A stretch of DNA of 64,000 nucleotides from Candidatus Woesebacteria bacterium (lineage in GTDB: Bacteria > Patescibacteriota > Microgenomatia > UBA1400 > PJMF01): assembly GCA_050123235.1 (NCBI GenBank), contig JASFHL010000006.1, positions 1,707 to 65,706 of the forward strand. The letters are read 5' to 3'. Positions 25,109 through 56,003 of the stretch are shown piece after piece. Both the position numbers and the translations under genes were made by a program. The notes beneath the pieces are model-generated. The model was not told the origin of the DNA. It did no database searches and saw only the letters and a program-made list of their open reading frames with translations. The stretch's first letter is position 1. Every line of letters begins with the position of its first letter.

Positions 25109-25380
25109 AGATTACTATTATAACTTATAACTTTCTAATTAATTAAAAACAATTACTAAATCTGGAGATACTAGATTAAAATTATAGCAGCAACTGTAGC
25201 CACTCATCCAAAATTCATTTAAGAATCTGCACTTGCTTTTTTGATATGGATATGTGATCATATTTTTTTAATGATAAAAATTAGTTGTTGGCACGTCACC
25301 CGTTATCAAATGGTCATCTTCTCTAAGAGAAGAGTGGGGGCGTGATTTATCATTAAATTTAAAAAATAACTAAAAAACGA

Positions 25381-25405
25381 CCCCGCAAAAAAAGCGGGGC
25401 TTTTT
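25381..25405. terminator. intrinsic terminator hairpin (CCCCGC-A7-GCGGGG + T5) flanked by A- and T-tracts, potentially bidirectional
   Basis: Perfect 6-bp GC stem with a 7-nt loop followed by TTTTT. An A-tract precedes it. Confidence 0.6.
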
Positions 25406-25504
25406 GATTTTAAGAAGTAATTATTAATTAGTAAGCGGAATTTTATAGCAAACTGTTTAAAAAAATTACTTAAAGCAGCTATAAAAATTCTGAAAGGAGG
25501 CGAA

Positions 25505-25717
25505 ATGTCACCCGTCAGGCCAACCCTCAGCAGCTCCAATCTAAAGACCTTATATTATCTGGCCTTAAACTGTTGCAAAGGGCAGAATCAAAGGCCCAGT
25601 TTATTTGAATATAAACAAGATCAAAGTAGCTTTGAAAGGGTGATGATTGCCATCAATAAAGCTAAGCGTAAGAATAGTTATTTTAAAAACTACGCCAATG
25701 CGATGATGAAAGAATAA
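25505..25717 (+). CDS. small ORF (70 aa) with strong Shine-Dalgarno; product unknown
   Basis: AAAGGAGG lies 5 nt before the ATG. No homology recognised; may instead lie within an ncRNA. Confidence 0.25.
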   Translation: MSPVRPTLSSSNLKTLYYLALNCCKGQNQRPSLFEYKQDQSSFERVMIAINKAKRKNSYFKNYANAMMKE

Positions 25718-25899
25718 AAAGTGATGGGTTCACTCAGCTCATTCAAGATGCAATGAGCTGAGTAAAGTTATCATTGCGTTGTGCTAATGGGCGCTTCCTT
25801 TCGATTGGTAAAGCAGACAACCCTCCGGGGGCATTTTTCCCAGCTCTTAAAAAACACAACCCTTTAGTAAAAAATCATAGTCTCTGCTAAAATTTAATT

Positions 25900-27153: not shown

Positions 27154-28266
27154 CTATTGGCTCTTTTCCCCATCATTTATCAAAACCGTTCCTTGCCTAA
27201 GATTCTCGATGCGTTCAATCTTTCTTTCCATTTGTTTACTTCTAGTAGTAGTCAGTTTTTCAAAACCAGTTTTTAAGGTATCGATAGATCTACCAAATTT
27301 GCTAAATTCATCTTTAAAGCGTCGCCATTCTTTGACAAAATCATCAACATATTTAACCACTTCCTTAAGCTTATCTCCAATCATAAAATTGCGATAACTC
27401 TCAATTACTGTTCTAGCTACAATCAAAAAAGTAAAAGGAGAAACAATCAGCACTCGTTTAGCAATCGCTGCATCTACAATATCTGGAAATTTTTGATTAA
27501 TAAAAGAAAAAACCATTTCATTGGGCACAAAAAGAATTGCATAATCTAAAGTGTCTTGTTCTGGATCAATATATGCTGCCACTTTATCAATCTTAGTTTT
27601 TAAATCTTTGCTAAACTGCTTGAGATGGCTGGCTTTAGCTGATTTAGTTTCTGCCAGACTCATTTTCTGAATCTCTTGATAGGGGAATTTGACATCAACC
27701 GGCACATTGCGTTTATTAGGTAAGAGCAAAGTAATATCGGGCTTTAAAGCTGAAGAACCTAATTTAGCTTGCCTCAAATAATGAGTGCCTTCTACTAAAC
27801 CATTGCTGACTAATAGATCTTCAATAATACGCTCTCCCCATTCACCTCGTTGTTGATTATTGGATAAAACCGTAGCTAACTGATGGGTAGACACTTTTAA
27901 ATCCTCAGCTAAACGTCTGTGTTGTTCCAAAGAAGTACTCAGTTCACTGAATTTTTTGACTCGATCTTTTTCTAAAAGCCTGATTTCTTCTTGTCGGCTG
28001 TTTAAATCTTGCTGGAGCTGCTTAACTAATTTTTCAAAAACCTTTTGTTTATTTTCTAAATCAGTTTTAATTGTTTCCTTTTCACTAGCTAAAATTTCCT
28101 TACTCTGCTTGGCGATTTTATTAGCACTCATGCCAAAAACTTGATTAATCATATCTTCCAGTTTATCAGTAGGCTTTTGCTCAAACATCAACTTTTTGAG
28201 TAGAAAATAGAGGCTCAAAAAACCGAGCACAATAGTAAATAAAATTAAAATTAAATCAATAGACAT
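27154..28266 (-). CDS. rmuC: DNA recombination protein RmuC
   Basis: N-terminal TM, long coiled coil, then GEWGERIIEDLL (the RmuC GxWGE signature). Confidence 0.75.
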   Translation of the reverse strand: MSIDLILILFTIVLGFLSLYFLLKKLMFEQKPTDKLEDMINQVFGMSANKIAKQSKEILASEKETIKTDLENKQKVFEKLVKQLQQDLNSRQEEIRLLEKDRVKKFSELSTSLEQHRRLAEDLKVSTHQLATVLSNNQQRGEWGERIIEDLLVSNGLVEGTHYLRQAKLGSSALKPDITLLLPNKRNVPVDVKFPYQEIQKMSLAETKSAKASHLKQFSKDLKTKIDKVAAYIDPEQDTLDYAILFVPNEMVFSFINQKFPDIVDAAIAKRVLIVSPFTFLIVARTVIESYRNFMIGDKLKEVVKYVDDFVKEWRRFKDEFSKFGRSIDTLKTGFEKLTTTRSKQMERKIERIENLRQGTVLINDGEKSQ

Positions 28267-30987: not shown

Positions 30988-31820
30988 TGCAAATTATTGA
31001 TACTCACTGCCACTACAACTTAGAACCATTGTATTCTGGTCAAGTTGCTCATTTTAAACTAAACCCCGACCATGCTCTAAGAAAAATGACTTGGCAAGAT
31101 CACTGGCGAAAAGCTAAAAAAAAAGGCGTAGTTAAATCTATTGTAGTTGGATCTGATCTTAATTCTAGTGACAAGGCTCTTGAAATCGCCAGCCAAGATA
31201 AAAATCTATATGCTGCCATTGGGCTTCACCCCCACGAGGCCAGCCTAGAGAGGCAAATTGATTTGGATCAAAAATTAAAAAAAATGGTTCTTAATTCTAA
31301 TGTAATTGCTATTGGTGAAACTGGGCTAGATTATTTTCATTTACAAAAAAATAGGACAAAAATTATTAAAAAGCAAGAAGATTTATTTATCAAACAAATT
31401 GAACTAGCTAATGAATTAAAACTCTCTCTAATTATTCATTGTCGCGATAGAGAAAAAAAGGCTTATCAAGATTTACTAGCCATTCTCAAAGCTCATACTC
31501 CTGAAAAAAGCTTTATCCTTCATTGTATTTCTGGATCATTAGATTATATTAAACAAGCTCTATCAATGGGCGCTTATTTGGGTGTAGCAGCTAATGTGAC
31601 TTACAAAAATGCAAACTCAATTAGAGAAATTGTCAAATATAGCCCCAATGATCGTTTATTAATAGAAACAGATGCTCCATATTTAGCACCTGAAAAATTT
31701 AGAGCCCAAGTGTGCGAGCCATGGATGATTGTTGAAACAGCTAAATTCTTACAAATTGAGTTTAAAATTGAGCCAGAGCAACTTTATAGTAATTCTATTA
31801 AGGCGTTCAGTTTAGTTTGA
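30987..31820 (+). CDS. tatD: TatD family metal-dependent hydrolase/DNase
   Basis: IDTHCH N-terminus and GETGLDY motif. Conserved metG-tatD synteny. Confidence 0.85.
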   Translation: MQIIDTHCHYNLEPLYSGQVAHFKLNPDHALRKMTWQDHWRKAKKKGVVKSIVVGSDLNSSDKALEIASQDKNLYAAIGLHPHEASLERQIDLDQKLKKMVLNSNVIAIGETGLDYFHLQKNRTKIIKKQEDLFIKQIELANELKLSLIIHCRDREKKAYQDLLAILKAHTPEKSFILHCISGSLDYIKQALSMGAYLGVAANVTYKNANSIREIVKYSPNDRLLIETDAPYLAPEKFRAQVCEPWMIVETAKFLQIEFKIEPEQLYSNSIKAFSLV

Positions 31821-31913
31821 TAAGCTTAATTTTGATTCGACTCCAAAATTCATCTATAGTAAATATAACTTTATCCTAAGTAAGATATAATAAATTAAGC
31901 TTATCAAACTAAA
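31811..31913. repeat. 21-bp perfect inverted repeat (31811-31831 / 31893-31913) enclosing a 61-nt loop, spanning the tatD stop codon and ending 3 nt before the next ATG
   Basis: Arm tttagtttgataagcttaatt and its exact reverse complement aattaagcttatcaaactaaa. Confidence 0.6.
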
Positions 31914-31916
31914 CTT

Positions 31917-46736: not shown

Positions 46737-47795
46737 TCAGCTTTCTAGCCAAGCTTCTGCATCTAAGGCTGCGCTACAACCTTGACCAGCTGCAGTAATG
46801 GCTTGTTTATAACGCAAATCAACAACATCGCCTGCAGCAAACACGCCTTCTACTGAAGTCATGCTGGGGTAATCAACTAGACCATTTTTATTTAAAGCTT
46901 GTTTAGCTTTTTCTAAACCAGCTTTGGAAAGACTTAAGCGGGTGATCAAATATTTTTTTTCATCCATTTCTAGCTGTCCTGCAAAAATCTCAGTCACTGG
47001 TCGATGGCCGATGGCCAAAAAGACTCCATCTGCTGTCAATTTTTGTATTTTGCCATTTATTTTAATTTTTATTTTTTCAACTTTATCTTGACCCAGCACT
47101 TCTTTAAGATTGCTATTCCATAAAACCTCAATCTTAGGATGCTTAAGAACTCGATCTTGCATAATTTTGCTGGCTCTAAATCTATCTCTGCGATGAATAA
47201 TATGAACTTCTTTGGCAAACTTAGTTAAAGCCAAAGCATCTTCCATAGCAGTATCACCCCCACCCACTACATAGACTTTTTTGTCTTTATAAAAGGCAGC
47301 GTCACAAACAGCACAAGTGCTAAGACCTCTACCTAAAAATTTTTGTTCTCCTGGAATACCTAACATGATCGAAGTAGCTCCAGTGCAAACAATCACTGCC
47401 TCGGGTTCAATGTCATGCTTTTTCTTTTTTATTTTAGCAGTCAAAGCTAGGATTTTTTCAGACTTAGCTTTTTTATAAAAATCATAAGCTGTACTTTCTG
47501 GTAAGCTAGTCCAAAGTTTGAAAGGTCTTTTTTTAAAATCAACAGCTGTCACTAGTTGGTCAACAATTTGAGTTTCAAAATGTTCTGCTTGCTGACGTAA
47601 GCTCATCATGAATTCAGGACCTTGAATTCCTTTAGGAAAGCCAGGAAAATTTTCAAGTTCAGTGGTATACATTAGTTGACCACCGCTTTCGAGGCCAGTG
47701 AAAAGTATGGGTTTCAGTTTTGCGCGAGCTGCATAAATAGCGGCTGTGTAGCCAGCAGGCCCAGAACCGATGATTGCCAATTTTGTTTTGATCAT
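46737..47795 (-). CDS. trxB: thioredoxin-disulfide reductase
   Basis: GSGPAGYTAA FAD motif and CAVCD redox centre. Confidence 0.85.
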   Translation of the reverse strand: MIKTKLAIIGSGPAGYTAAIYAARAKLKPILFTGLESGGQLMYTTELENFPGFPKGIQGPEFMMSLRQQAEHFETQIVDQLVTAVDFKKRPFKLWTSLPESTAYDFYKKAKSEKILALTAKIKKKKHDIEPEAVIVCTGATSIMLGIPGEQKFLGRGLSTCAVCDAAFYKDKKVYVVGGGDTAMEDALALTKFAKEVHIIHRRDRFRASKIMQDRVLKHPKIEVLWNSNLKEVLGQDKVEKIKIKINGKIQKLTADGVFLAIGHRPVTEIFAGQLEMDEKKYLITRLSLSKAGLEKAKQALNKNGLVDYPSMTSVEGVFAAGDVVDLRYKQAITAAGQGCSAALDAEAWLES

Positions 47796-47826
47796 AAGAT
47801 TAATTTATTAGTTAAAGTATTTGAGT

Positions 47827-48003
47827 GAATCTCTAAAATATTATTATATATAAATCTTGCACACGTTCGCTGCAACATTTTATTTTTGTTTTAGATACAA
47901 GGCTCACTCGGTGAAGCTCGGTAGTAGATGAATTGCTAGCTCGAATCTAGCCAGACCTCGCTTCAACGGTAAAGATTTATATATAATAATATTTTAGAGA
48001 TTC
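47827..48003. repeat. perfect 32-bp inverted repeat (47827-47858 / 47972-48003) enclosing a 113-nt GC-richer core between trxA and trxB; the core is copy C of the 3'-UTR repeat family
   Basis: Arm gaatctctaaaatattattatatataaatctt and its exact reverse complement. Confidence 0.6.
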
Positions 48004-48033
48004 TAATCAAAGCACTAACTAATTAAACATTTA

Positions 48034-48381
48034 TTAATCTAAAACTCCCTCAATCATGGCTTTTAAGCCGGCTTCACCTGGAAAACCTACTTGTCGTTTT
48101 ACTTCTTTGATCTTTTTTCCATCAGCTTCAAAAATAATAACAGTAGGAATACTCATCACACCATATTCTTTAGCAGTAGTTTGATTTTCATCAACATTGA
48201 CTTTAACAATCATAATTTTATCTTTATATTCATCAGCTAATTTATCAATGATAGGGGCTGCCATTTGACAAGGCCCACACCAATCAGCATAAAAATCAAC
48301 CATTACTGGCTTGCCTGCTTTTTGAATACTTTGTTTAAAGTTATCATCATTTAGATGAGCTGCGCCTTTTTTGTCTGCCAT
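48034..48381 (-). CDS. trxA: thioredoxin
   Basis: WCGPC active site. Confidence 0.9.
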   Translation of the reverse strand: MADKKGAAHLNDDNFKQSIQKAGKPVMVDFYADWCGPCQMAAPIIDKLADEYKDKIMIVKVNVDENQTTAKEYGVMSIPTVIIFEADGKKIKEVKRQVGFPGEAGLKAMIEGVLD

Positions 48382-48410
48382 AAATCTCCTTTACAAAAAT
48401 TTATAAATCT

Positions 48411-48704
48411 TTAATATCTAAAAATCTCTTTTAAAATTTGATCTAGTTGTTTTATATTTCGTTCCTTGGAACAACGACTTGCTTCATTGCTTAGCAAATC
48501 TCTAGCCACTCTACCTAAAGAATTACGAGCTGCAATTACTTGTCTCACAATATCAATGCACATTCTTTCATCTTCATACATTTTAATCAAGCCGTCGATT
48601 TGACCTCTAATTCTTCTCAGTTGCTGAGCAACTTTGTCTTCTGTTTTATCTTTAGAGATTATAGAAATTTTTTTTAATTTTTTGTTTCGCTTTACTCGTG
48701 ACAT
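48411..48704 (-). CDS. CsoR/RcnR/FrmR-family (DUF156) metal/redox-sensing transcriptional repressor
   Basis: 97-aa protein with LRRIRGQIDGLIKMYEDERMCIDIVRQV...RC. The sensor positions read Cys...Asn...Cys rather than Cys-His-Cys. Confidence 0.7.
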   Translation of the reverse strand: MSRVKRNKKLKKISIISKDKTEDKVAQQLRRIRGQIDGLIKMYEDERMCIDIVRQVIAARNSLGRVARDLLSNEASRCSKERNIKQLDQILKEIFRY

Positions 48705-48709
48705 ATTAT

Positions 48710-48742
48710 TTTAATATACCCCCTGGGGGTATGTTAAGTCAA
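48710..48742 (-). promoter_or_regulatory. promoter of the CsoR-family gene, TTGACT-N18-TATATT, with the ATACCCCC-T-GGGGGTAT operator overlapping spacer and -10; -10 is ~8 nt from the ATG (leaderless)
   Basis: Reverse complement of plus 48705-48742 reads TTGACTtaacatacccccagggggTATATTaaaataat, followed by ATG. Confidence 0.5.
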
Positions 48743-48755
48743 GTAGATCTTTCTA

Positions 48756-50603
48756 TCAATTTTTGATTTGATTCTGTAATTTAACAATTAATTCCAACAG
48801 ATCATTTAATCTGGTCTCCTCTTCTTCTGTTTTTTTTAATTTTTTATCAAGTTCTTCAATTTGAGCATTGATTTTGTTGATTTTTCTTCTGATTAATTCT
48901 TTTTTTAATAAATTAAAAACTCGATTCCATTCTTGATCAACTTTTAATTGATCCAATAAATCAAGATATTTGGGATTTAAATAAAAGTCAAACAGTTTTT
49001 CTTTTAAATCTTCAGCTAGAGTGTGAGCAAACTTATCTAAAACAAAATCAGTTTTAAAACTAATTATTTTTTTAATAATTTGCTGAGCACCTAATAAACT
49101 AAGCTCAAAATCTTTTAACAAGCAAGCTCTATCTTTAACTTTGCTTTGATCAGAGCGCAGTAACAAAAAAAATAAATACCTTTCTAGTTCTAATAGACTC
49201 TCACTTTCTCCTTCTGCTTTTTTTTGTGACGGTCTCCTGGCAATTTTACTGACAACGCTCTTTTTTTGTTTCTTAGATATTATTTTAAGATTAGCGCTAA
49301 TCCTAGTCATATCCTTCATCACTACCGCCTGTTTAACATTTAAAGCTTTAGCTAATTTAGCTAAATAATAATCTTGCTCAACTGCATGTTTAATCTTAAA
49401 TAAAACTGCTGCTAATTCATCCATAATTTTTCTTTTCCCTTCTGGCTTTTGGGGATCATGTTTATTTAAAACTACCCGTAGTAAAAACTCATAAATAGAG
49501 ATTGATTGTTTAGCTTTTTTACGCCAAAGGGATGCTTCAACGCTAGCTAGTTCATCAACATCTTTGTATTTTTTCCTATTGCTAACTTTTTTATTATCAG
49601 AATTATCATTTAAATCAATGATCCGTAACTCCAAACGACTGTCTTTTATTAAATCAATTGCTCTTCTACTAGCTTCAATGCCAGCATTATCAGTATCAAG
49701 ACAAAGCAAAACTTTATCAGCTACTCTTTCAAACAATTTAATTTGCTCTTTTGTTAAGGCTGAACCCTTAATTGCCACAATGTGATTGACATGAGCTTGT
49801 ACTGAAGAAATGACATCAAATTCCCCTTCACAAACAATTACTTCCTGTTTCTTCTTAATTTCGCGAAATAATTCACTAAAACCATAGAGCATCTGAGATT
49901 TATGATAGAGTAAAGTTTCAGGAGTGTTAATATATTTGGCCTCCTTAGCTGCTTTATCAAGTAAACGACCTGAAAAGCCAACAACTATACCTCGGTGATT
50001 TTTAAGAGGGAAAACTACTCTGGAACGAAAACGATCATAATAGCGACCAGTTTTGGTTTTGATGATTAAACCTGTTTTGAAAATTTCTTCCAAACTAAAT
50101 TTCTTTTTATGATGCAAATACTTGATCAAACCATCCCAACTATCCAGAGCAAATCCTAATTGAAATAATTTAATTGAATCTTGAGTAATACTTCTTTCTT
50201 TCAAATATGCTCTAGCTTTCTCTCCTCTTTGATGTTTAGTGAGTATATAGTGGTAATATTCTTTAGCTAAATTTAAAATTGCTAACAATCGTTCGCGTTC
50301 TTCATCATTACTGGAGCGCTTAAATTCTTTTAACTTAATGCCAGCCCGATCAGCTAATTGTTTCAAAGCTTCCAAAAAAGTCATGCCATCATATCTCTCC
50401 AAAAATTCGATCACATCACCACTTGCTCCACAACCAAAGCAACGAAAACGCTGAATATCTTCACTGACAAAGAAACTGGGAGTTTTTTCATTATGAAAGG
50501 GACAAAGGCCCTTATAACTACTACCTGCAGCTTTCAATTCCAAACGCTCAACAATAATATCAACAATATTATTAGCATCCTTGACTGTTTGGACTTGGGA
50601 CAT
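48756..50603 (-). CDS. dnaG: DNA primase
   Basis: CPFHNEKTPSF zinc finger and a Toprim domain. Confidence 0.9.
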   Translation of the reverse strand: MSQVQTVKDANNIVDIIVERLELKAAGSSYKGLCPFHNEKTPSFFVSEDIQRFRCFGCGASGDVIEFLERYDGMTFLEALKQLADRAGIKLKEFKRSSNDEERERLLAILNLAKEYYHYILTKHQRGEKARAYLKERSITQDSIKLFQLGFALDSWDGLIKYLHHKKKFSLEEIFKTGLIIKTKTGRYYDRFRSRVVFPLKNHRGIVVGFSGRLLDKAAKEAKYINTPETLLYHKSQMLYGFSELFREIKKKQEVIVCEGEFDVISSVQAHVNHIVAIKGSALTKEQIKLFERVADKVLLCLDTDNAGIEASRRAIDLIKDSRLELRIIDLNDNSDNKKVSNRKKYKDVDELASVEASLWRKKAKQSISIYEFLLRVVLNKHDPQKPEGKRKIMDELAAVLFKIKHAVEQDYYLAKLAKALNVKQAVVMKDMTRISANLKIISKKQKKSVVSKIARRPSQKKAEGESESLLELERYLFFLLLRSDQSKVKDRACLLKDFELSLLGAQQIIKKIISFKTDFVLDKFAHTLAEDLKEKLFDFYLNPKYLDLLDQLKVDQEWNRVFNLLKKELIRRKINKINAQIEELDKKLKKTEEEETRLNDLLELIVKLQNQIKN

Positions 50604-50695
50604 ATTAGGGCTATTTTAACAGACGTCTAGAACATTACTATAGATAAATAAGACAGTAGGACTTCTCTCCAAATTGTGTTTATAATGTAAATCAT

Positions 50696-51124
50696 ATGCC
50701 AGAAAGTAAAAAAACAGAAAAAAAAAGAGAACATATCAAGAGCCCTTTCAGCATCTACTTTAATATGCTTAGTGAGATTGATAAGGGAGCGAGGTATTCC
50801 AAAGAATATGGGTCTATTCTTATCTTAGGTCTAGTAGAAGAGATTGGAGAAATGGCTAGAGCTTACCTCGCAGAACATGGACGTAAAAAAACAAATATAG
50901 CGGCTCAACTGGATGAAACCTATCAACAGGAATTAGGTGACATTCTATTAGTGATTCTAAGATTTGCCAGAATTAAAAAAATTAATTTACATGACAGAAT
51001 CATGTATTCGATGAAAAAAATTCAAAAAAGAAAAGCCCAACCTAAAGGAGCAAAAAAATTAAAAGTTTCTCTAAGCGATGCCAAGACCAAAAAAGTAAAA
51101 ACAAAGAAAAATCAAACTCCTTAA
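50696..51124 (+). CDS. MazG-like nucleotide pyrophosphohydrolase with lysine-rich C-terminal tail
   Basis: EExGE-like EEIGEMARAY and ELGDILLVILRFA helices. Confidence 0.5.
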   Translation: MPESKKTEKKREHIKSPFSIYFNMLSEIDKGARYSKEYGSILILGLVEEIGEMARAYLAEHGRKKTNIAAQLDETYQQELGDILLVILRFARIKKINLHDRIMYSMKKIQKRKAQPKGAKKLKVSLSDAKTKKVKTKKNQTP

Positions 51125-51192
51125 GCTAAATCTCTAAATCTTCCACCAGGGTTATACTTAAGAATTACTGCTAAATAAAAAAAGAGTTCTAG

Positions 51193-51612
51193 CTATTTAT
51201 CCTTCCTCCCCAAACGTCTTTCAACCATCACACATCTATCGTGCACTACTTCGATTTGATTTTTTTGACAAAAGCTAATTGCTTTTTCACTCTCACTACC
51301 TGGCTGCAACCAAACTTTTTTTATACCTAGCTTTTTAACTTCTGTTAATACTCGCTCTGTAACAGCTGGTGGCACTACAAAAATCACCATTTCAATTTTG
51401 TCTTTGACATCACTTAGATGAGCGTAAACTTTTTGCCCTAAAATTTTTTTTTCTTTTAAATTAATAGGGATAACATTAAAACCAGCATCAGTGAGGTCTT
51501 TTAAAATTTTATAACCATATTTTTCAGGGTTAGCGGAGGCCCCAACTAGGGCGAAAATCTTCTTTTTTAGCATTTTGTTCCTCTTTCCATTTTTCCGTAC
51601 GTTTTGTTTCAA
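51193..51612 (-). CDS. CoA-binding domain protein (YccU-like)
   Basis: IFALVGASANPEKYGYKILKDL motif. Likely true start at an internal Met near 51573. Confidence 0.65.
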   Translation of the reverse strand: MKQNVRKNGKRNKMLKKKIFALVGASANPEKYGYKILKDLTDAGFNVIPINLKEKKILGQKVYAHLSDVKDKIEMVIFVVPPAVTERVLTEVKKLGIKKVWLQPGSESEKAISFCQKNQIEVVHDRCVMVERRLGRKDK

Positions 51613-52027
51613 GGATCTCTTCTAACAATCCTCCAAAATTTGGTTTTTTTCTCACTTGTATTACGTGACGGATATAATCTTGTGTTATTTGAAGACACTC
51701 TATAGCTAAAAGAGCTTCACAATTCAAATGATTGGCAAAATAATCAACAAGAATTCTAGCGTGGTTTCGATTGATTGTAATGTGATAATACCAGCTAAGC
51801 TCTGCTTGATTTGGGTAAAAACCATCTTCTTGCAATCCAGGATCACAAATAGGGCAAAGGGCCAATAGTTCTTCTAATCCATCAACATTAAAACGAGGTC
51901 TATCATACTTCTCATTAAGTTCTCGTCTTTGTTCATCAGGAAGATCATGCCACATTTCCATACCAAAAATATGCGGATATTTACGATTTTCTTTCATTTC
52001 TGAATCACTTGAAATTTCTCTCTCCAT
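51530..52027 (-). CDS. hypothetical protein
   Basis: ORF with a CPICD motif. Its 3' end overlaps the next ORF. Confidence 0.35.
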   Translation of the reverse strand: MEREISSDSEMKENRKYPHIFGMEMWHDLPDEQRRELNEKYDRPRFNVDGLEELLALCPICDPGLQEDGFYPNQAELSWYYHITINRNHARILVDYFANHLNCEALLAIECLQITQDYIRHVIQVRKKPNFGGLLEEILETKRTEKWKEEQNAKKEDFRPSWGLR

Positions 52028-52088
52028 AATAAAATTGCTCCTTTTAATTAATGCTATACTAACAATTATAATATCAACTTAAGAAAAT

Positions 52089-53261
52089 ATGAACTCAAAA
52101 AAATCAATTTATCTAGACTATGCTGCCACCACCCCTGTTGATCCCAGAGTAATAAAAGCTATGCTGCCTTATTTTAATAAAAAATTTGCTAATGCTGCTA
52201 CTATCTATAAACTAGGATTGGAAGCTAAAAAAGCAGTTGAAGACAGTCGCAGGCTTATGGCTGAAGCTCTGGGCGCAGTAAATAAAGAAGTTTTCTTTAC
52301 CAGCAGTGCTACTGAAAGCAATAATACAGTGCTAAAAGGGATTGCTTTTGCTAATAAAGATAAGGGCAATCACATTATCATTTCTGAAATTGAGCATGAC
52401 TGTATTCTCAATAGCGCTAAGTGGCTAAAAAAACAAGGTTTTAAAATCACTAGACTGAAAGTAGATGATCGTTATGGCCGCATTCATCCAAAATCTGTGG
52501 CAAAAGCTATCACTGATGAGACTATCTTAGTCTCTATTCTTCATGCTAATAATGAAATTGGTACTATTCAAGATATTGCCAAAATTGGACAAATCTGCAG
52601 ACAAAAAGGAGTGTATTTTCATACTGATGCTGCTCAAAGTTTTGCCAAAATACCAATTAATATCAAGGAAATGAACATTGATCTGCTAACTGCCTCTGCC
52701 CACAAAATCTATGGTCCAAAAGGAGTAGCGCTACTCTATATAAAACAGGGAGTAGCAATTGAACCACTATTGCATGGAGGTGGTCAAGAATCTAATATGC
52801 GTTCTTCTACTAGCAATACCGCAGCCATTGTCGGCTTTGCCAAAGCCACTGAGCTTTGTTTAGCAGAGATGGAAAAAGAATCTAAAAGACTGACTAAACT
52901 GCGTGACAAAGTGATTAAAACTGTTTTATCTAAAATTCCAGAGACTAGTTTAAATGGCCATCCCACTGAGAGATTAGCTAACAATATTAATCTTTCCTTT
53001 TCCTTTGTGGAAGGGGAGTCGATTATTTTGTTACTAGATGCAGCTGGCATCTCGGCGTCGACTGGCTCTGCCTGTTCATCCAAGAACTTAGAGCCTTCAC
53101 ATGTTTTAAAATCCTGTGGCATTAAAGCTGAAAAAATTCATGGCTCATTAAGGCTGAGTCTTGGTCGCTGGACTAATGAAAAAGACATTGATTATTTGTT
53201 AAAAACTTTGCCTGCTATTATCAAAAAACTTAGAAAAGTCTCACCTTTTAGAAAAAAATAA
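52089..53261 (+). CDS. iscS: cysteine desulfurase
   Basis: LDYAATTP N-terminus, SAHKIYGPKG PLP-lysine motif, C-terminal SSGSAC. Confidence 0.9.
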   Translation: MNSKKSIYLDYAATTPVDPRVIKAMLPYFNKKFANAATIYKLGLEAKKAVEDSRRLMAEALGAVNKEVFFTSSATESNNTVLKGIAFANKDKGNHIIISEIEHDCILNSAKWLKKQGFKITRLKVDDRYGRIHPKSVAKAITDETILVSILHANNEIGTIQDIAKIGQICRQKGVYFHTDAAQSFAKIPINIKEMNIDLLTASAHKIYGPKGVALLYIKQGVAIEPLLHGGGQESNMRSSTSNTAAIVGFAKATELCLAEMEKESKRLTKLRDKVIKTVLSKIPETSLNGHPTERLANNINLSFSFVEGESIILLLDAAGISASTGSACSSKNLEPSHVLKSCGIKAEKIHGSLRLSLGRWTNEKDIDYLLKTLPAIIKKLRKVSPFRKK

Positions 53262-53264
53262 TAT

Positions 53265-53786
53265 TTGTATTATGAGAAAATTTTTATGTACACAAAAAAA
53301 GTAATGCAGCATTTTCAAAATCCTAAAAATACAGGTAAATTAAAAAATCCTGATGGAATCGGCAAAGTGGGCAATATTGTCTGTGGAGATGTAATGCATC
53401 TTTATATTAAAGTGGGAAAAAATAAAAAAAATGATAATATTCTGAAAGATATTAAATTTGAGACTTTTGGTTGTGCTGCAGCCATTGCAACGAGTAGTAT
53501 CATCACCGACTTAGCCAAAGGGCAAACTTTGGAGCAAGCTTTAAAAATAAATAAAAATAAGGTTGTGGACTCATTGGGTGGTTTGCCACCAGTAAAAGTG
53601 CATTGCTCAATCTTAGCAGTTGATGCTCTTAGTGAAGCTATTTATGATTATTTGAAAAAAAATAAAAAAGCAATTCCTGCAGACTTAAAAAAAAGACACC
53701 TGCGAATTCAAAAAGAAAAAAAACTCATCAAAGAAAAATATCGTGAATGGACAGAAGGGCAAGAAAAAACCCTAACAAATGAATAG
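53265..53786 (+). CDS. iscU: Fe-S cluster assembly scaffold IscU/NifU with extended basic C-terminus
   Basis: GxVxCGD and FGCAAAIATSS cysteine ligand motifs. Confidence 0.85.
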   Translation: MYYEKIFMYTKKVMQHFQNPKNTGKLKNPDGIGKVGNIVCGDVMHLYIKVGKNKKNDNILKDIKFETFGCAAAIATSSIITDLAKGQTLEQALKINKNKVVDSLGGLPPVKVHCSILAVDALSEAIYDYLKKNKKAIPADLKKRHLRIQKEKKLIKEKYREWTEGQEKTLTNE

Positions 53787-53860
53787 GCTGGATAGTTTCC
53801 ATCAATCAATATACTACCGAGCTTCATGGAATGAGCCTCACTCTATGACGATCTTTATCC
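53787..53860 (+). repeat. 3'-UTR repeat family copy A, with invariant 14-mer ACTACCGAGCTTCA at 53814-53827
   Basis: Alignable over ~70 nt with copies at 55925-56000 and the reverse complement of 47859-47971. Confidence 0.45.
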
Positions 53861-54545
53861 TTGACCCATCTAACTGGGCTTTTTCACCACTAGTGGATTT
53901 AATTTGCACCATGTATTGATTATTGCCAGCAGTTAAAGCCAAAGCTGGAGAACTTTTCCAAGTTGAACTGCTAGTATTATGAAAAATTTCTGAATTATGA
54001 AAGATATGACCTGTAGTTTTATTAATTAATCTAGCATGCACCTCACCACCAATGATTGATAAAGCTGCCTGAAGTTCGATATTTTTGACTTTGGGATAAT
54101 TACTACTATTAATATATGCGACTGCTGAACTCATATCAGTCCATTCTCGGCTGGTAGTACTGCCTGTGCCTAAATAAACAAAATATTCTTTGACAGCGGG
54201 TTGAGCAGAACTTTGGGGAATAGTGCTTTTAGCTGCGGGTTTTTTTTCTAAAGCAGTAATTCTAGATTTTAAATCTTGTATTTCAGCTGCCAAACTAGCA
54301 ATGCTGGCTTTATTTTCCTGAACCTGTGTGTCTATTGAAGAACTTTTCTCTTCGCCTAAAGTAGAATCAGCAAGTAAACTTGAATCTTCTGTATCTGTTT
54401 CTGAAGAACTACCAAGAATCTTTTCTAGGTTTTGGTTAAATTGCTTAAGTTTTTGTGAAGTAGATAAAGAAAAAATCCACAAAGCTATTAAGTTAGCAAT
54501 TATAAATAAAGTAAATAAAAAAATTAATTTAGAAAATTTGGGCAT
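53838..54545 (-). CDS. hypothetical secreted/anchored protein with coiled-coil
   Basis: N-terminal TM/signal; no recognisable motif. Confidence 0.4.
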   Translation of the reverse strand: MPKFSKLIFLFTLFIIANLIALWIFSLSTSQKLKQFNQNLEKILGSSSETDTEDSSLLADSTLGEEKSSSIDTQVQENKASIASLAAEIQDLKSRITALEKKPAAKSTIPQSSAQPAVKEYFVYLGTGSTTSREWTDMSSAVAYINSSNYPKVKNIELQAALSIIGGEVHARLINKTTGHIFHNSEIFHNTSSSTWKSSPALALTAGNNQYMVQIKSTSGEKAQLDGSRIKIVIE

Positions 54546-54630
54546 TCAAATTAAGTATAGCAGAGATGCTCATTGCTATGCTAAATAAAATAAAGATATT
54601 GACAAATTTAAAACAGTTATAGGAATAAAA

Positions 54631-55176
54631 TTACCAAATTTTAGCTTTACTTCCTGCTTTGGGCCTTTTGTGAGCGGCTATTCTAGTTTGGGGAAAATCC
54701 ATTTTATCTCCACCTTCTCCTTGAAGACGACGTCTGCGTCTCCTCCTCTCTATTTTAGGCTTCTTTTTTGGTTTTTTTACTTTTCTTTCTTCTAGCCCCG
54801 AATCAGTACCTAAATCAGCCTCAGTTTCTTCTACTTTGACATCAGTAATCTTATCTCCATCCATCACACATTTAAAAGTTAGGCCATTGACAGAAAAAGT
54901 CTGAATAACTTCACTGCCTTCTAACTTCGAGTCTGGGAAAATGTTTGCTCTACGCAATTTGCCAAAAACATTGGGAGTATTATCACTTGGTTCATTGAGT
55001 ATAGCTATTAGTCCCTCCTTAGCTTCTTCTTCCTCAAGTAAAACTTTTGCTCCTAAGTTGGCTAGCTGATCAGTTAAGTTGTCTAATGCTTCCGGCTCCT
55101 CTGCTATCACAATTTTTTCCAACATAATTCCTCCTAAAAGTCTAATAATTATTATCACTCTAGCAAAAAGTATCAA
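54631..55176 (-). CDS. hypothetical protein with arginine-rich C-terminal tail
   Basis: ORF with an RRRRRR basic stretch. Start probably at an internal Met. Confidence 0.3.
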   Translation of the reverse strand: MILFARVIIIIRLLGGIMLEKIVIAEEPEALDNLTDQLANLGAKVLLEEEEAKEGLIAILNEPSDNTPNVFGKLRRANIFPDSKLEGSEVIQTFSVNGLTFKCVMDGDKITDVKVEETEADLGTDSGLEERKVKKPKKKPKIERRRRRRRLQGEGGDKMDFPQTRIAAHKRPKAGSKAKIW

Positions 55177-55283
55177 AGAAAACTAGCACTGAAACAAAAA
55201 AAATAGACTTTAGTAAACAATTGTACTTTTTCAATAACTTTAATATACTGCTCATATAAACTTATTAATTAAATCCAAAACAG

Positions 55284-55907
55284 ATGTTAAAAACAATTTT
55301 GCCAACTAAATTATTTAAAATAGTCATTATTACGCTATTTCTTAGCTGTTTAGCAGTTTTCCTATGGTGGAAACAAAGTAATTTAAATTCCAAGTTTAAA
55401 CTAAACTTAGATCAAGCAGCAGTTATTAAAGAGATTCAGGAATTAAATAAATTAGAAACAGCCTCTTTTAACATTGAAAAAATCATTGATGCTGGTACAG
55501 ATGCTAATCAATTTAAAGAATTTTTATTTGGTGATCGTATTTTATTAATCGCCCATGGCAGAGTAGTTGCCGGTATTGATTTGTCTAAAATTGAAGGAAA
55601 AGATATCCAGATTAATGAAGAAAGCAAAGAATTGAAAATCAAACTAGCTGCCCCTCAAATATTTCACACTATTATTGATAATGAAAAAACTAAAGTCTAC
55701 GACAGAAAAAAAGGCATTTTAACTAAAGGTCAAAAAGATCTTGAGGCTCAAGCACGCCAAGCTGCAGAGGAAAGCATCCAAGAGGCTGCTTGTGAAGCTG
55801 ATATCCTAGATATTGCAGCTACCAGCGCAGAAAAACAACTGATTATTCTTTTTAAGGCATTGGGTTTTGAATCAGTAATTATTAAAATTGAGAAAGGAAA
55901 CTGTTAG
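55284..55907 (+). CDS. DUF4230-like membrane-anchored protein
   Basis: N-terminal TM. RVVAGIDLSKIEG...KVYD pattern recalled for DUF4230. Confidence 0.45.
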   Translation: MLKTILPTKLFKIVIITLFLSCLAVFLWWKQSNLNSKFKLNLDQAAVIKEIQELNKLETASFNIEKIIDAGTDANQFKEFLFGDRILLIAHGRVVAGIDLSKIEGKDIQINEESKELKIKLAAPQIFHTIIDNEKTKVYDRKKGILTKGQKDLEAQARQAAEESIQEAACEADILDIAATSAEKQLIILFKALGFESVIIKIEKGNC

Positions 55908-55924
55908 TGAGTTCACTACACAAC

Positions 55925-56000
55925 AATTTTAGAGCGTTGAAGTGGAGTCTGGTTGGATTTAAATTGGCAATAAATACACTACCGAGCTTCAGCGAATCAA
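55925..56000 (+). repeat. 3'-UTR repeat family copy B, with 14-mer at 55978-55991 and flanking 8-bp stem CGTTGAAG/CTTCAGCG
   Basis: See copy A. Lies between convergent genes. Confidence 0.45.
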
Positions 56001-56003
56001 AAT

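Follow-up and report, generated by a model that had tools for sequence, protein, structure and literature searches.

The spacer between the trxA and trxB genes of this Candidatus Woesebacteria genome is occupied by a palindromic insert, whose perfect arms delimit a unit of 177 bp. As judged by comparison with the orthologous loci of six related genomes, this insert is specific to the lineage and has replaced the short, Shine-Dalgarno (SD)-bearing spacer of the relatives. It probably alters the expression of both trxA and trxB. Within the window (the whole stretch of DNA analyzed, 64,000 nucleotides), the trxA-trxB spacer extends from position 47796 to 48033 (238 bp), and a perfect 32-nt inverted repeat located inside it encloses a core of 113 nt. 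The features of the locus are as follows:

46737..47795, minus strand: trxB, encoding thioredoxin reductase (352 aa; Pfam match), intact and full-length in comparison with relatives
47797..47826, minus strand: outer imperfect 3' extension, which stops 1 nt short of the trxB AUG (...AUUAAUCU-U-AUG) and carries no SD sequence
47827..47858, minus strand: trxB-proximal arm, GAATCTCTAAAATATTATTATATATAAATCTT, the 3' arm in the transcript and the exact reverse complement of its partner arm
47859..47971, minus strand: core (113 nt, 45% GC), located between both arms
47972..48003, minus strand: trxA-proximal arm, GAAUCUCUAAAAUAUUAUUAUAUAUAAAUCUU, the 5' arm in the operon transcript
48004..48036, minus strand: outer imperfect 5' extension of marginal significance, which reaches the trxA stop codon (AGAUUAAU...)
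48034..48381, minus strand: trxA, encoding thioredoxin (115 aa; Pfam match), with the SD sequence AAGGAG upstream
48411-48704: gene of a CsoR-type repressor (PF02583), the apparent start of the operon

The inverted repeat between trxA and trxB is real and non-random. The arm found no match in any of 100 dinucleotide shuffles, with up to 3 mismatches permitted, and the longest perfect inverted repeats (loop of up to 400 nt) in 40 simulated 64-kb sequences (first-order Markov) measured 12-15 nt. The GC content of the arms is 12.5%, compared with 45% for the core and 34% for the window, and the trxB-proximal arm includes a TATAAT hexamer reading towards trxB. The fold z-score of the spacer (-8.8 to -9.1) is the most extreme among all intergenic spacers of the window. 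Its RNA has a predicted fold energy of -72.6 kcal/mol, and that of the arm duplex alone is -37.3 kcal/mol. The sequence-only reading of this DNA had described 32/32 arms at exactly these positions, around a GC-richer core of 113 nt in a 238-bp spacer between two co-directional genes of a putative operon; it had also held that such a match cannot be chance and that its transcript would fold into a very long stem-loop. The positions, base composition, gene arrangement and shuffling results bear this out, and the predicted energies agree with the stem-loop.

Using a repeat-finder, the arms could be extended outward to 55 nt at 82% identity. Compared with shuffled sequences, the outer flanks were equalled in 327 of 1000 cases by gapped alignment, and in 27 of 500 (sense) and 4 of 500 (antisense) by pairing energy. 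The entire spacer was therefore rejected as a single palindrome, the alignment of its outer flanks being not significant and their pairing energy marginal. Since the outer part is barely above chance, the solid feature is the 177-bp unit. It is possible that an older, decayed outer palindrome (total ~225 bp) reaches from the trxA stop codon to 1 nt before the trxB AUG. The combination of a perfect inner and a decayed outer arm is not predicted by simple transposon insertion. Derivation of the arm from the csoR-trxA leader (AAGATTTATA...GAGATT) was also considered and rejected, because the shuffle p value was ~0.05 and ~27 equally good windows are present in the 64 kb.

The csoR-like gene, trxA and trxB constitute one apparent operon, in which trxA and trxB are co-directional and both intact. 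Upstream of the CsoR-type gene lies an operator-like C5-A-G5 palindrome, which overlaps a -10-like TAAAAT. The usual promoter of this genome is of the TGnTAWAAT type, located 7-10 nt before the ATG. Neither this box nor an SD sequence is present before trxB. A 28-codon ORF ends in a TGA placed on the trxB ATG; it is the longest of 15 comparable ATGA cases, i.e. those without a real upstream gene overlapping the start, and with p at only ~0.07 it was discarded.

In the six related genomes trxA is located directly upstream of trxB, and the encoded proteins share 57-66% (TrxB) and 52-68% (TrxA) identity with those analyzed here. The orthologous trxA-trxB spacers comprise 24-33 bp, with SD sequences of the AAGGAAGG type, in five of the six relatives and ~70 bp in the sixth. 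The SD sequence is clear, and in three cases it reads AAGGAAGGTG. Since a short, SD-bearing spacer is found in five of the six, ~200 bp of the spacer studied here represent a lineage-specific insert that took its place. The sequence-only reading had proposed this very comparison of spacers, and the outcome speaks for insertion. A search for an empty site in a closer relative or a sister strain yielded none: exact-protein look-ups returned the same strain only, the identical TrxB being recorded for a 'Candidatus Woesebacteria' MAG, and the next TrxB relatives, which carry the names Pacebacteria, Paceibacterota or Patescibacteria, do not exceed 69% identity. Given that the closest TrxB relatives are just 57-69% identical, the insertion is polarized over a long evolutionary distance. 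A candidate remnant of the ancestral SD spacer within the core (CAGCGA...GTGTGC) was rejected as not significant against five relatives.

Part of the core recurs in the window. The three copies of a 68-nt repeat are distributed as follows:

47900..47967, minus strand: copy C, inside the armed core, with the invariant ACTACCGAGCTTCA at 47912-47925
53771..53838, plus strand: copy A, armless, filling the 51-nt gap between convergent nifU-like and DUF4407-like genes
55936..56003, plus strand: copy B, armless, between convergent DUF4230 and SurA-like genes

The repeat in the core belongs to a genuine family of three members. Copies A, B and C share the invariant 14-mer as well as scattered invariant positions, at a pairwise identity of 54-71%, and they score 74-86 bits versus 12 bits for the next match (nhmmer profile, and covariance model without filters). 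With the profile and the covariance model, no further copies were found in the window or at the loci of the relatives. Copy A lacks the 5' third, and the end of the nifU coding sequence stands in its place. Each of the three copies is sense-oriented and located downstream of a gene. The presence of a repeat copy in the armed core had been noted in the sequence-only reading, and the location of copies A and B agrees with it.

The 68-nt repeat is not palindromic as a whole. The predicted fold of copy C is composed of (i) a stem P1, UGAAGC/GCUUCA (6 bp), (ii) a GA/GA internal loop, (iii) a stem P2, GGU/ACC (3 bp) and (iv) an inner hairpin:

47935..47951, minus strand: inner hairpin of the copy C fold, GCUAG-AUUCGAG-CUAGC (sense), with a 5-bp stem and a 7-nt loop

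On the sense strand, copy B can form 13 of the 14 copy-C pairs, including five G-U pairs, versus 9 of 14 on the opposite strand, and copy A retains the inner hairpin only. This hairpin is kept across the copies through changes of G-C to A-U and G-U pairs, and its loop sequence is different in all three. The conservation of the fold was equalled in 339 of 500 shuffles, a comparison in which three sequences give no statistical power, and the core alone folds no better than shuffled sequences (z = 0.06). ARAGORN detected only tRNA-Ser and tRNA-Arg, both at ~60 kb, in the window and nothing at the trxA-trxB spacer. Rfam searches, at gathering thresholds and at E<=10, returned nothing for copies A, B and C or for the region 47700-48100. 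A tRNA-like identity or membership of a known RNA family was rejected on the basis of these ARAGORN and Rfam searches (the latter including the tRNA model, E<=10). The T-arm-like hairpin pointed out earlier (GCTAG-CTCGAAT-CTAGC) is thus present at 47935-47951 as a structure, its loop is unconserved, and its likeness to tRNA was not upheld.

A scan for perfect repeats revealed a second palindrome in the window:

31809..31915, plus strand: hairpin D, with perfect 24-nt arms and a 59-nt loop, at the junction of tatD and a GT2-glycosyltransferase gene

Hairpin D (arms at 31809-31832 and 31892-31915; z = -6.2) fills the 96-bp junction, and the JGI assembly contains the same 96-bp spacer at this site. 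Its 5' arm takes in the tatD stop codon together with the three codons before it. F274 closes the conserved TatD motif, and the arm sets in one codon later. A single nucleotide separates the 3' arm from the downstream ATG, and the two junctions end alike: …AAACT-T-ATG in hairpin D and …AATCT-T-ATG in the outer arm of the trx element. Neither hairpin D nor the idea of an invertible switch figured in the sequence-only reading.

Homology between the trx element and hairpin D, or between the outer arms and the D arms, was not established (17/1000, 502/1000 and 239/1000 shuffles). The loop of hairpin D, which shares GATTCGA...ATTCATCTA with the core, was rejected as a fourth core copy (47/1000 shuffles, no match to the covariance model). 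Perfect looped inverted repeats of at least 18 nt were absent from ~250 kb of other DNA, ~38 kb from the closest relatives. The genome therefore holds at least two independent spacer-filling perfect palindromes, of which D shows no detectable homology to the trx element, and it evidently tolerates or produces such inserts. Two independent palindromes point to a genome-specific process (insertion of a hairpin element or template-switch inverted duplication) rather than to one dedicated regulatory device.

The sequence-only reading had suggested that a MITE-like insertion brought in the core repeat, and had proposed looking for the arm elsewhere and for target-site duplications at its edges. This suggestion was not supported, since copies A and B are armless, the arm is single-copy in the DNA searched and no target-site duplication was found. 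A second copy of the arm was present neither in the 64-kb window nor in ~4 kb of additional flanking DNA, and the arm pattern gave 0 matches in the viral and metagenome contigs scanned. Target-site duplications were absent from the edges of the perfect arms (…GATTA on one side, ACTCA… on the other) and from those of the 55-nt extended arms. The one sequence found near both gene ends, ATTAAT, is trivially palindromic. The core pattern likewise gave 0 matches in metagenome or viral contigs; its absence from the metagenome contigs implies that the source genome itself is not contained in that collection. The whole spacer, compared by blastn with phages and plasmids, had no match. Genes for a transposase, recombinase, invertase, RNase III or Y1-transposase (RAYT) were not present in the Pfam lists of the window, which span ~1-35 kb and 38-64 kb.

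From the armless copies A and B, the single-copy arm and the missing target-site duplication it follows that the core, rather than the arms, is what recurs. This architecture, with a repeated core and single-copy arms, is the reverse of that of a classical MITE and of the Correia element, in which the 26-bp arm is repeated (PMC2649163). The insert shares with MITE- and Correia-like elements the terminal inverted repeats around a short non-coding core and the empty site in relatives, and it lacks their target-site duplication. It shares with invertons the inverted repeats (32 nt) flanking a short segment (113 nt), and no invertase was seen in the annotated window. It departs from REP/BIME elements in its 68-nt repeat, in the number of copies (three) and in the lack of a RAYT-type gene in the Pfam lists. 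At the DNA level, the insert may have come from a non-autonomous palindromic element that inserted here, or from an inverted duplication made locally by template switching.

An assembly artefact, i.e. a chimeric or hairpin mis-join that made the inverted repeat, is unlikely, and we assign it an extremely small probability. Metagenome and MDA assemblies can contain inverted-repeat chimeras. Moreover, the three assemblies may originate from overlapping read sets: the Logan contigs match the window at 100% identity across 37 kb, so their agreement is one of assemblers and not necessarily of samples. However, both flanks run into correctly oriented, intact genes, and a JGI contig from the same strain has a spacer of identical length (238 bp). 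Logan contig L036, which is 100% identical to the window, starts at position 47856, i.e. 30 nt (k-1) inside the arm; it contains trxB, 31 nt of flank and 30 nt of the arm, and then ends. In Logan contigs each 31-mer is present only once by construction (PMC12424806), and the break inside the arm is explained by the fact that a repeat of at least 31 nt must interrupt a k=31 graph at k-1. A short real spacer would let the contig continue into trxA. Owing to the same break, the k=31 assembly is blind to core orientation. Such perfect inverted repeats interrupt k=31 assemblies, and their orientation can be mis-assembled; they deserve a flag in MAG curation.

We tentatively favour, with a probability somewhat short of even, the following explanation, which is modelled by analogy with known elements: the palindromic insert is co-transcribed with the operon, and its 32-bp RNA duplex serves in the processing or stability of the mRNA, thereby uncoupling trxA from trxB. 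The sequence-only reading had named an RNase III processing site or attenuator among the candidate roles, and such a role would be the likeliest consequence of the stem. The insert would be transcribed within the csoR-like/trxA/trxB mRNA. Since a terminator scan of the spacer detected no terminator-like site, the read-through RNA should carry both arms and fold, and the transcript would then form a long hairpin with a 32-bp perfect duplex. A perfect duplex of this kind is a canonical substrate of the double-strand-specific RNase III, whose need for ~two helical turns is exceeded by 32 bp, and it would block 3' exonucleases. The predicted duplex may thus serve as an RNase III substrate, as a barrier to 3' exonucleases, or as both. 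Cleavage or blockage at the stem would part a stable, trxA-containing 5' segment from a trxB-containing 3' segment. The expected outcome is a lowered trxB:trxA ratio, as with the Correia elements of Neisseria (RNase III) and the REP hairpins of the E. coli mal operon. The absence of an RNase III gene from the annotated window (Pfam lists, ~1-35 kb and 38-64 kb) counts against the processing reading.

Several other explanations were weighed against this one. It is rather unlikely that the palindrome is neutral, i.e. a by-product of template switching during replication (inverted duplication or quasipalindrome correction) or a dead selfish insert, tolerated because it folds back on itself and with no meaningful effect on trxA/trxB expression. 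Such an origin is consistent with the unique arms, the lack of a target-site duplication and the fact that no transposase was seen; the perfect identity of the arms suggests that it was recent. Nothing comparable is present in the relatives, and hairpin D, which is unrelated in sequence and has its 5' arm right after the last conserved TatD residue, suggests a mutational process specific to this genome. However, the SD spacer is wholly gone and trxB is intact, so expression must go through or around the element, and in a cell with RNase III, an mRNA would hardly contain a 32-bp perfect RNA duplex without consequence. We find it improbable that the locus is an inverton, in which recombination between the 32-bp arms flips the 113-bp core and alters transcription into trxB (sense) or trxA (antisense). 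The anatomy fits, with perfect inverted repeats around an intergenic segment well below 300 bp, upstream of a gene. Homogenization by recombination could explain the perfect inner arm next to a decayed outer flank, and the k=31 Logan graph, which breaks at the arm, leaves the orientation of the core unfixed. On the other hand, a promoter consensus scan of the spacer found a single 9/12 site, which lies in an arm; the core has no convincing promoter, and none of the genomic TGnTAWAAT type was seen in it. The Pfam lists (~1-35 kb, 38-64 kb) contain no serine or tyrosine recombinase, and the arms of hairpin D are unrelated, so one invertase site consensus cannot cover both palindromes. In addition, the 238-bp spacer occurs in both full assemblies, which were compared by spacer length, and trxB, as a housekeeping gene, is an atypical target of phase variation.

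It seems quite improbable that the arms form a processing stalk, the cleavage of which frees a structured RNA of ~115 nt with the 68-nt motif, copies A and B being versions borne by 3'-UTRs. The conservation of the motif in three copies (invariant 14-mer, hairpin kept through pair changes), their sense orientation downstream of a gene in 3/3 cases and the wobble pairs favouring the sense strand are consistent with such an RNA. It is at odds with the absence of a stalk from copies A and B, the loss of the 5' third of the motif in copy A, the fold of the core alone (z = 0.06), the lack of covariation power and of an Rfam relative, and the absence of copies from the relatives and from the public collections scanned. 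We regard as very unlikely the proposal that both hairpins are a translational-coupling device replacing the lost SD sequence, and that the 68-nt core is a new 3'-UTR motif of redox/Fe-S genes (nifU, trxA). The 5' side of the stem would in that case contain or adjoin the upstream stop codon, and the terminating ribosome would melt the stem and expose or reach the downstream start; the genome is SD-poor and largely leaderless. A terminator or attenuator between trxA and trxB is highly unlikely. A very stable hairpin does lie directly after trxA, and copies A and B are also located at 3' gene ends. However, the terminator scan was empty, and the characteristics of an intrinsic terminator are missing: the stem has 12.5% GC, the loop of 113 nt is atypical, and no U-tract follows the stem (ACUCAAAUAC...). 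Elsewhere in the genome, at least one canonical terminator (~25382-25410) does combine a G+C-rich stem with a U-run, and trxB has no recognizable promoter of the usual type of this genome.

If the insert is processed as predicted by the favoured explanation (a co-transcribed processing or stability site), it would mean that an uncultivated lineage tunes its thioredoxin system post-transcriptionally, and would exemplify how an operon can survive the loss of a ribosome-binding site. The interest of the locus would rise if sequencing reads revealed inversion of the core, or if the stop-to-start geometry proved to be that of a coupling device. Genomes of the candidate phyla radiation are very small, and the usual view holds that they contain few repeats and little mobile DNA. 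A literature search found no paper on palindromic intergenic elements in the candidate phyla radiation or Patescibacteria.

Among the known systems, the Correia repeat enclosed elements (CREE, or nemis) of Neisseria are composed of a 26-bp inverted repeat around a core (~100-160 bp in total) and are intergenic (PMC2649163). They are co-transcribed, the hairpin formed by their arms in mRNA is cleaved or bound by RNase III, and the arms can supply -10-like hexamers (PMC2649163). They are present in ~120-250 copies per genome with common arms, duplicate their target and are often located between a promoter and a gene or inside an operon (PMC2649163). The trx element is likewise an intergenic inverted repeat with a core, and its co-transcription is predicted only. 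It differs from CREE in that its arm is single-copy in the searched DNA, it has no target duplication and its core recurs without arms; moreover, there is no sequence similarity, and the hosts belong to different phyla.

The REP/BIME and ERIC elements of enterobacteria are extragenic, are located at the 3' ends of genes and in operon spacers, and are co-transcribed. REP hairpins shield the upstream mRNA from 3' exonucleases and thereby set expression within operons, the paradigm being malE-malF. REPs are imperfect palindromes of 20-40 nt, occur in hundreds of copies and are linked to the RAYT transposase. Copies A and B lie between convergent gene ends, as do many REPs. Unlike REPs, the family described here is composed of three copies of a non-palindromic 68-nt motif with no RAYT seen, and the trx element has much larger arms (32 bp) and a 113-nt loop. 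The flanks of pre-16S and pre-23S rRNA are also long and complementary, and form duplexes of at least 20 bp that are processed by RNase III. As in these stalks, long complementary arms bracket a structured RNA, which at trx is a predicted fold only. In contrast to rRNA, the trx core comprises 113 nt, is not conserved outside this genome and lies inside a protein-coding operon.

An inverton is a regulatory segment bounded by inverted repeats, and over 75% of invertons are shorter than 300 bases (PMC11602134). The trx segment is similar in being shorter than 300 bp, intergenic, upstream of a gene and bounded by perfect inverted repeats; it differs in that the consensus scan placed no promoter in the core, no invertase is present in the annotated window and the downstream gene encodes a housekeeping redox enzyme. 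The trx element does not fully fit the known element classes, because the arm is single-copy in the searched DNA, no target duplication is present and the core is the repeated part. In its architecture and probable consequence, the trx element resembles the known intergenic palindromic elements, and it looks like an ordinary kind of palindromic insert that was previously uncatalogued.

A perfect palindrome, the second in the window, fills the junction between tatD and a gene encoding a GT2 glycosyltransferase:
31809-31915, plus strand: 24-nt arms (AGTTTAGTTTGATAAGCTTAATTT) separated by a 59-nt loop.

The 5′ arm contains the stop codon and the last three codons of tatD, while the ATG of the downstream gene lies 1 nt past the end of the 3′ arm. 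The sequence TATAAT is present in the loop, 25 nt ahead of this ATG. The predicted fold has a z-score of -6.2, and the palindrome shows no homology to the inverted-repeat element of the trxA-trxB spacer. As background to how perfect palindromes might arise or persist, the mismatch-repair proteins MutS and MutL are encoded in this genome, and so is RmuC (27154-28266); the loci are positions 193-4513 of L037, a Logan contig of the same strain, and 65-2807 of the window. Where the window is annotated, no genes of the SbcCD type were noticed.

The 68-nt core repeat, one copy of which is enclosed by the trxA-trxB inverted repeat, has its three copies within 8 kb (47900-56003), and the remaining 56 kb of the window contains no further copy. 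This clustering suggests that the repeat was not dispersed genome-wide but spread locally, by duplication or gene conversion. Two of the copies follow redox or Fe-S genes (nifU-like and trxA).

The trxA-trxB spacer also contains a short ORF running into trxB:
47792-47878, minus strand: 28-codon ORF (MLQRTCARFIYNNILEIHSNTLTNKLIL), which begins towards the 3′ end of the core, then crosses the trxB-proximal arm.

Its TGA overlaps the trxB ATG (ATGA). Among the 15 ATGA-start genes without a real upstream gene overlapping the start, this is the longest open frame of its kind (p only ~0.07). The ORF is not preceded by a Shine-Dalgarno (SD) sequence; its translation, should it occur, would open the stem and be coupled to that of trxB.

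Across the window, SD-like motifs precede only 10 of 61 genes. Many genes have instead an extended -10-type box (TGnTAWAAT, GCTATAAT or CTAAAAT) whose last base lies 7-10 nt upstream of the ATG, e.g. those starting at:
23536, minus strand
25108, minus strand
29512, plus strand
50696, plus strand
50603, minus strand
25900, plus strand

This pattern suggests that mRNAs of this Patescibacteria genome are predominantly leaderless.

The divergent spacer 25109-25899 (791 bp) has strong predicted structure (z = -5.7), matches no Rfam family, and contains:
~25382-25410: canonical terminator (CCCCGC-AAAAAAA-GCGGGG and a T-run)
~25506-25717: SD-led ORF of ~70 aa
25722-25773: imperfect 22-nt hairpin

Of the Logan contigs of the same strain, L038 starts within this spacer, at 25827, and L039 starts at 48516, inside the csoR-like gene. 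The window contains no repeat of at least 25 nt that explains these breaks; possible causes are further copies of the sequence in other parts of the genome or a local drop in coverage.

The csoR-like gene precedes trxA and trxB:
48411-48704, minus strand: CsoR/RcnR-family gene (PF02583)

The spacer 5′ of it (48705-48755, 51 bp) is also a fold outlier (z = -4.2). Within this spacer, the minus strand of 48705-48729 reads CCCCCAGGGGG, followed directly by TATATTAAAAT and then by the ATG. Since the C5/G5 palindrome found here overlaps the -10 box, it looks like an autoregulatory operator of a csoR-like/trxA/trxB operon.
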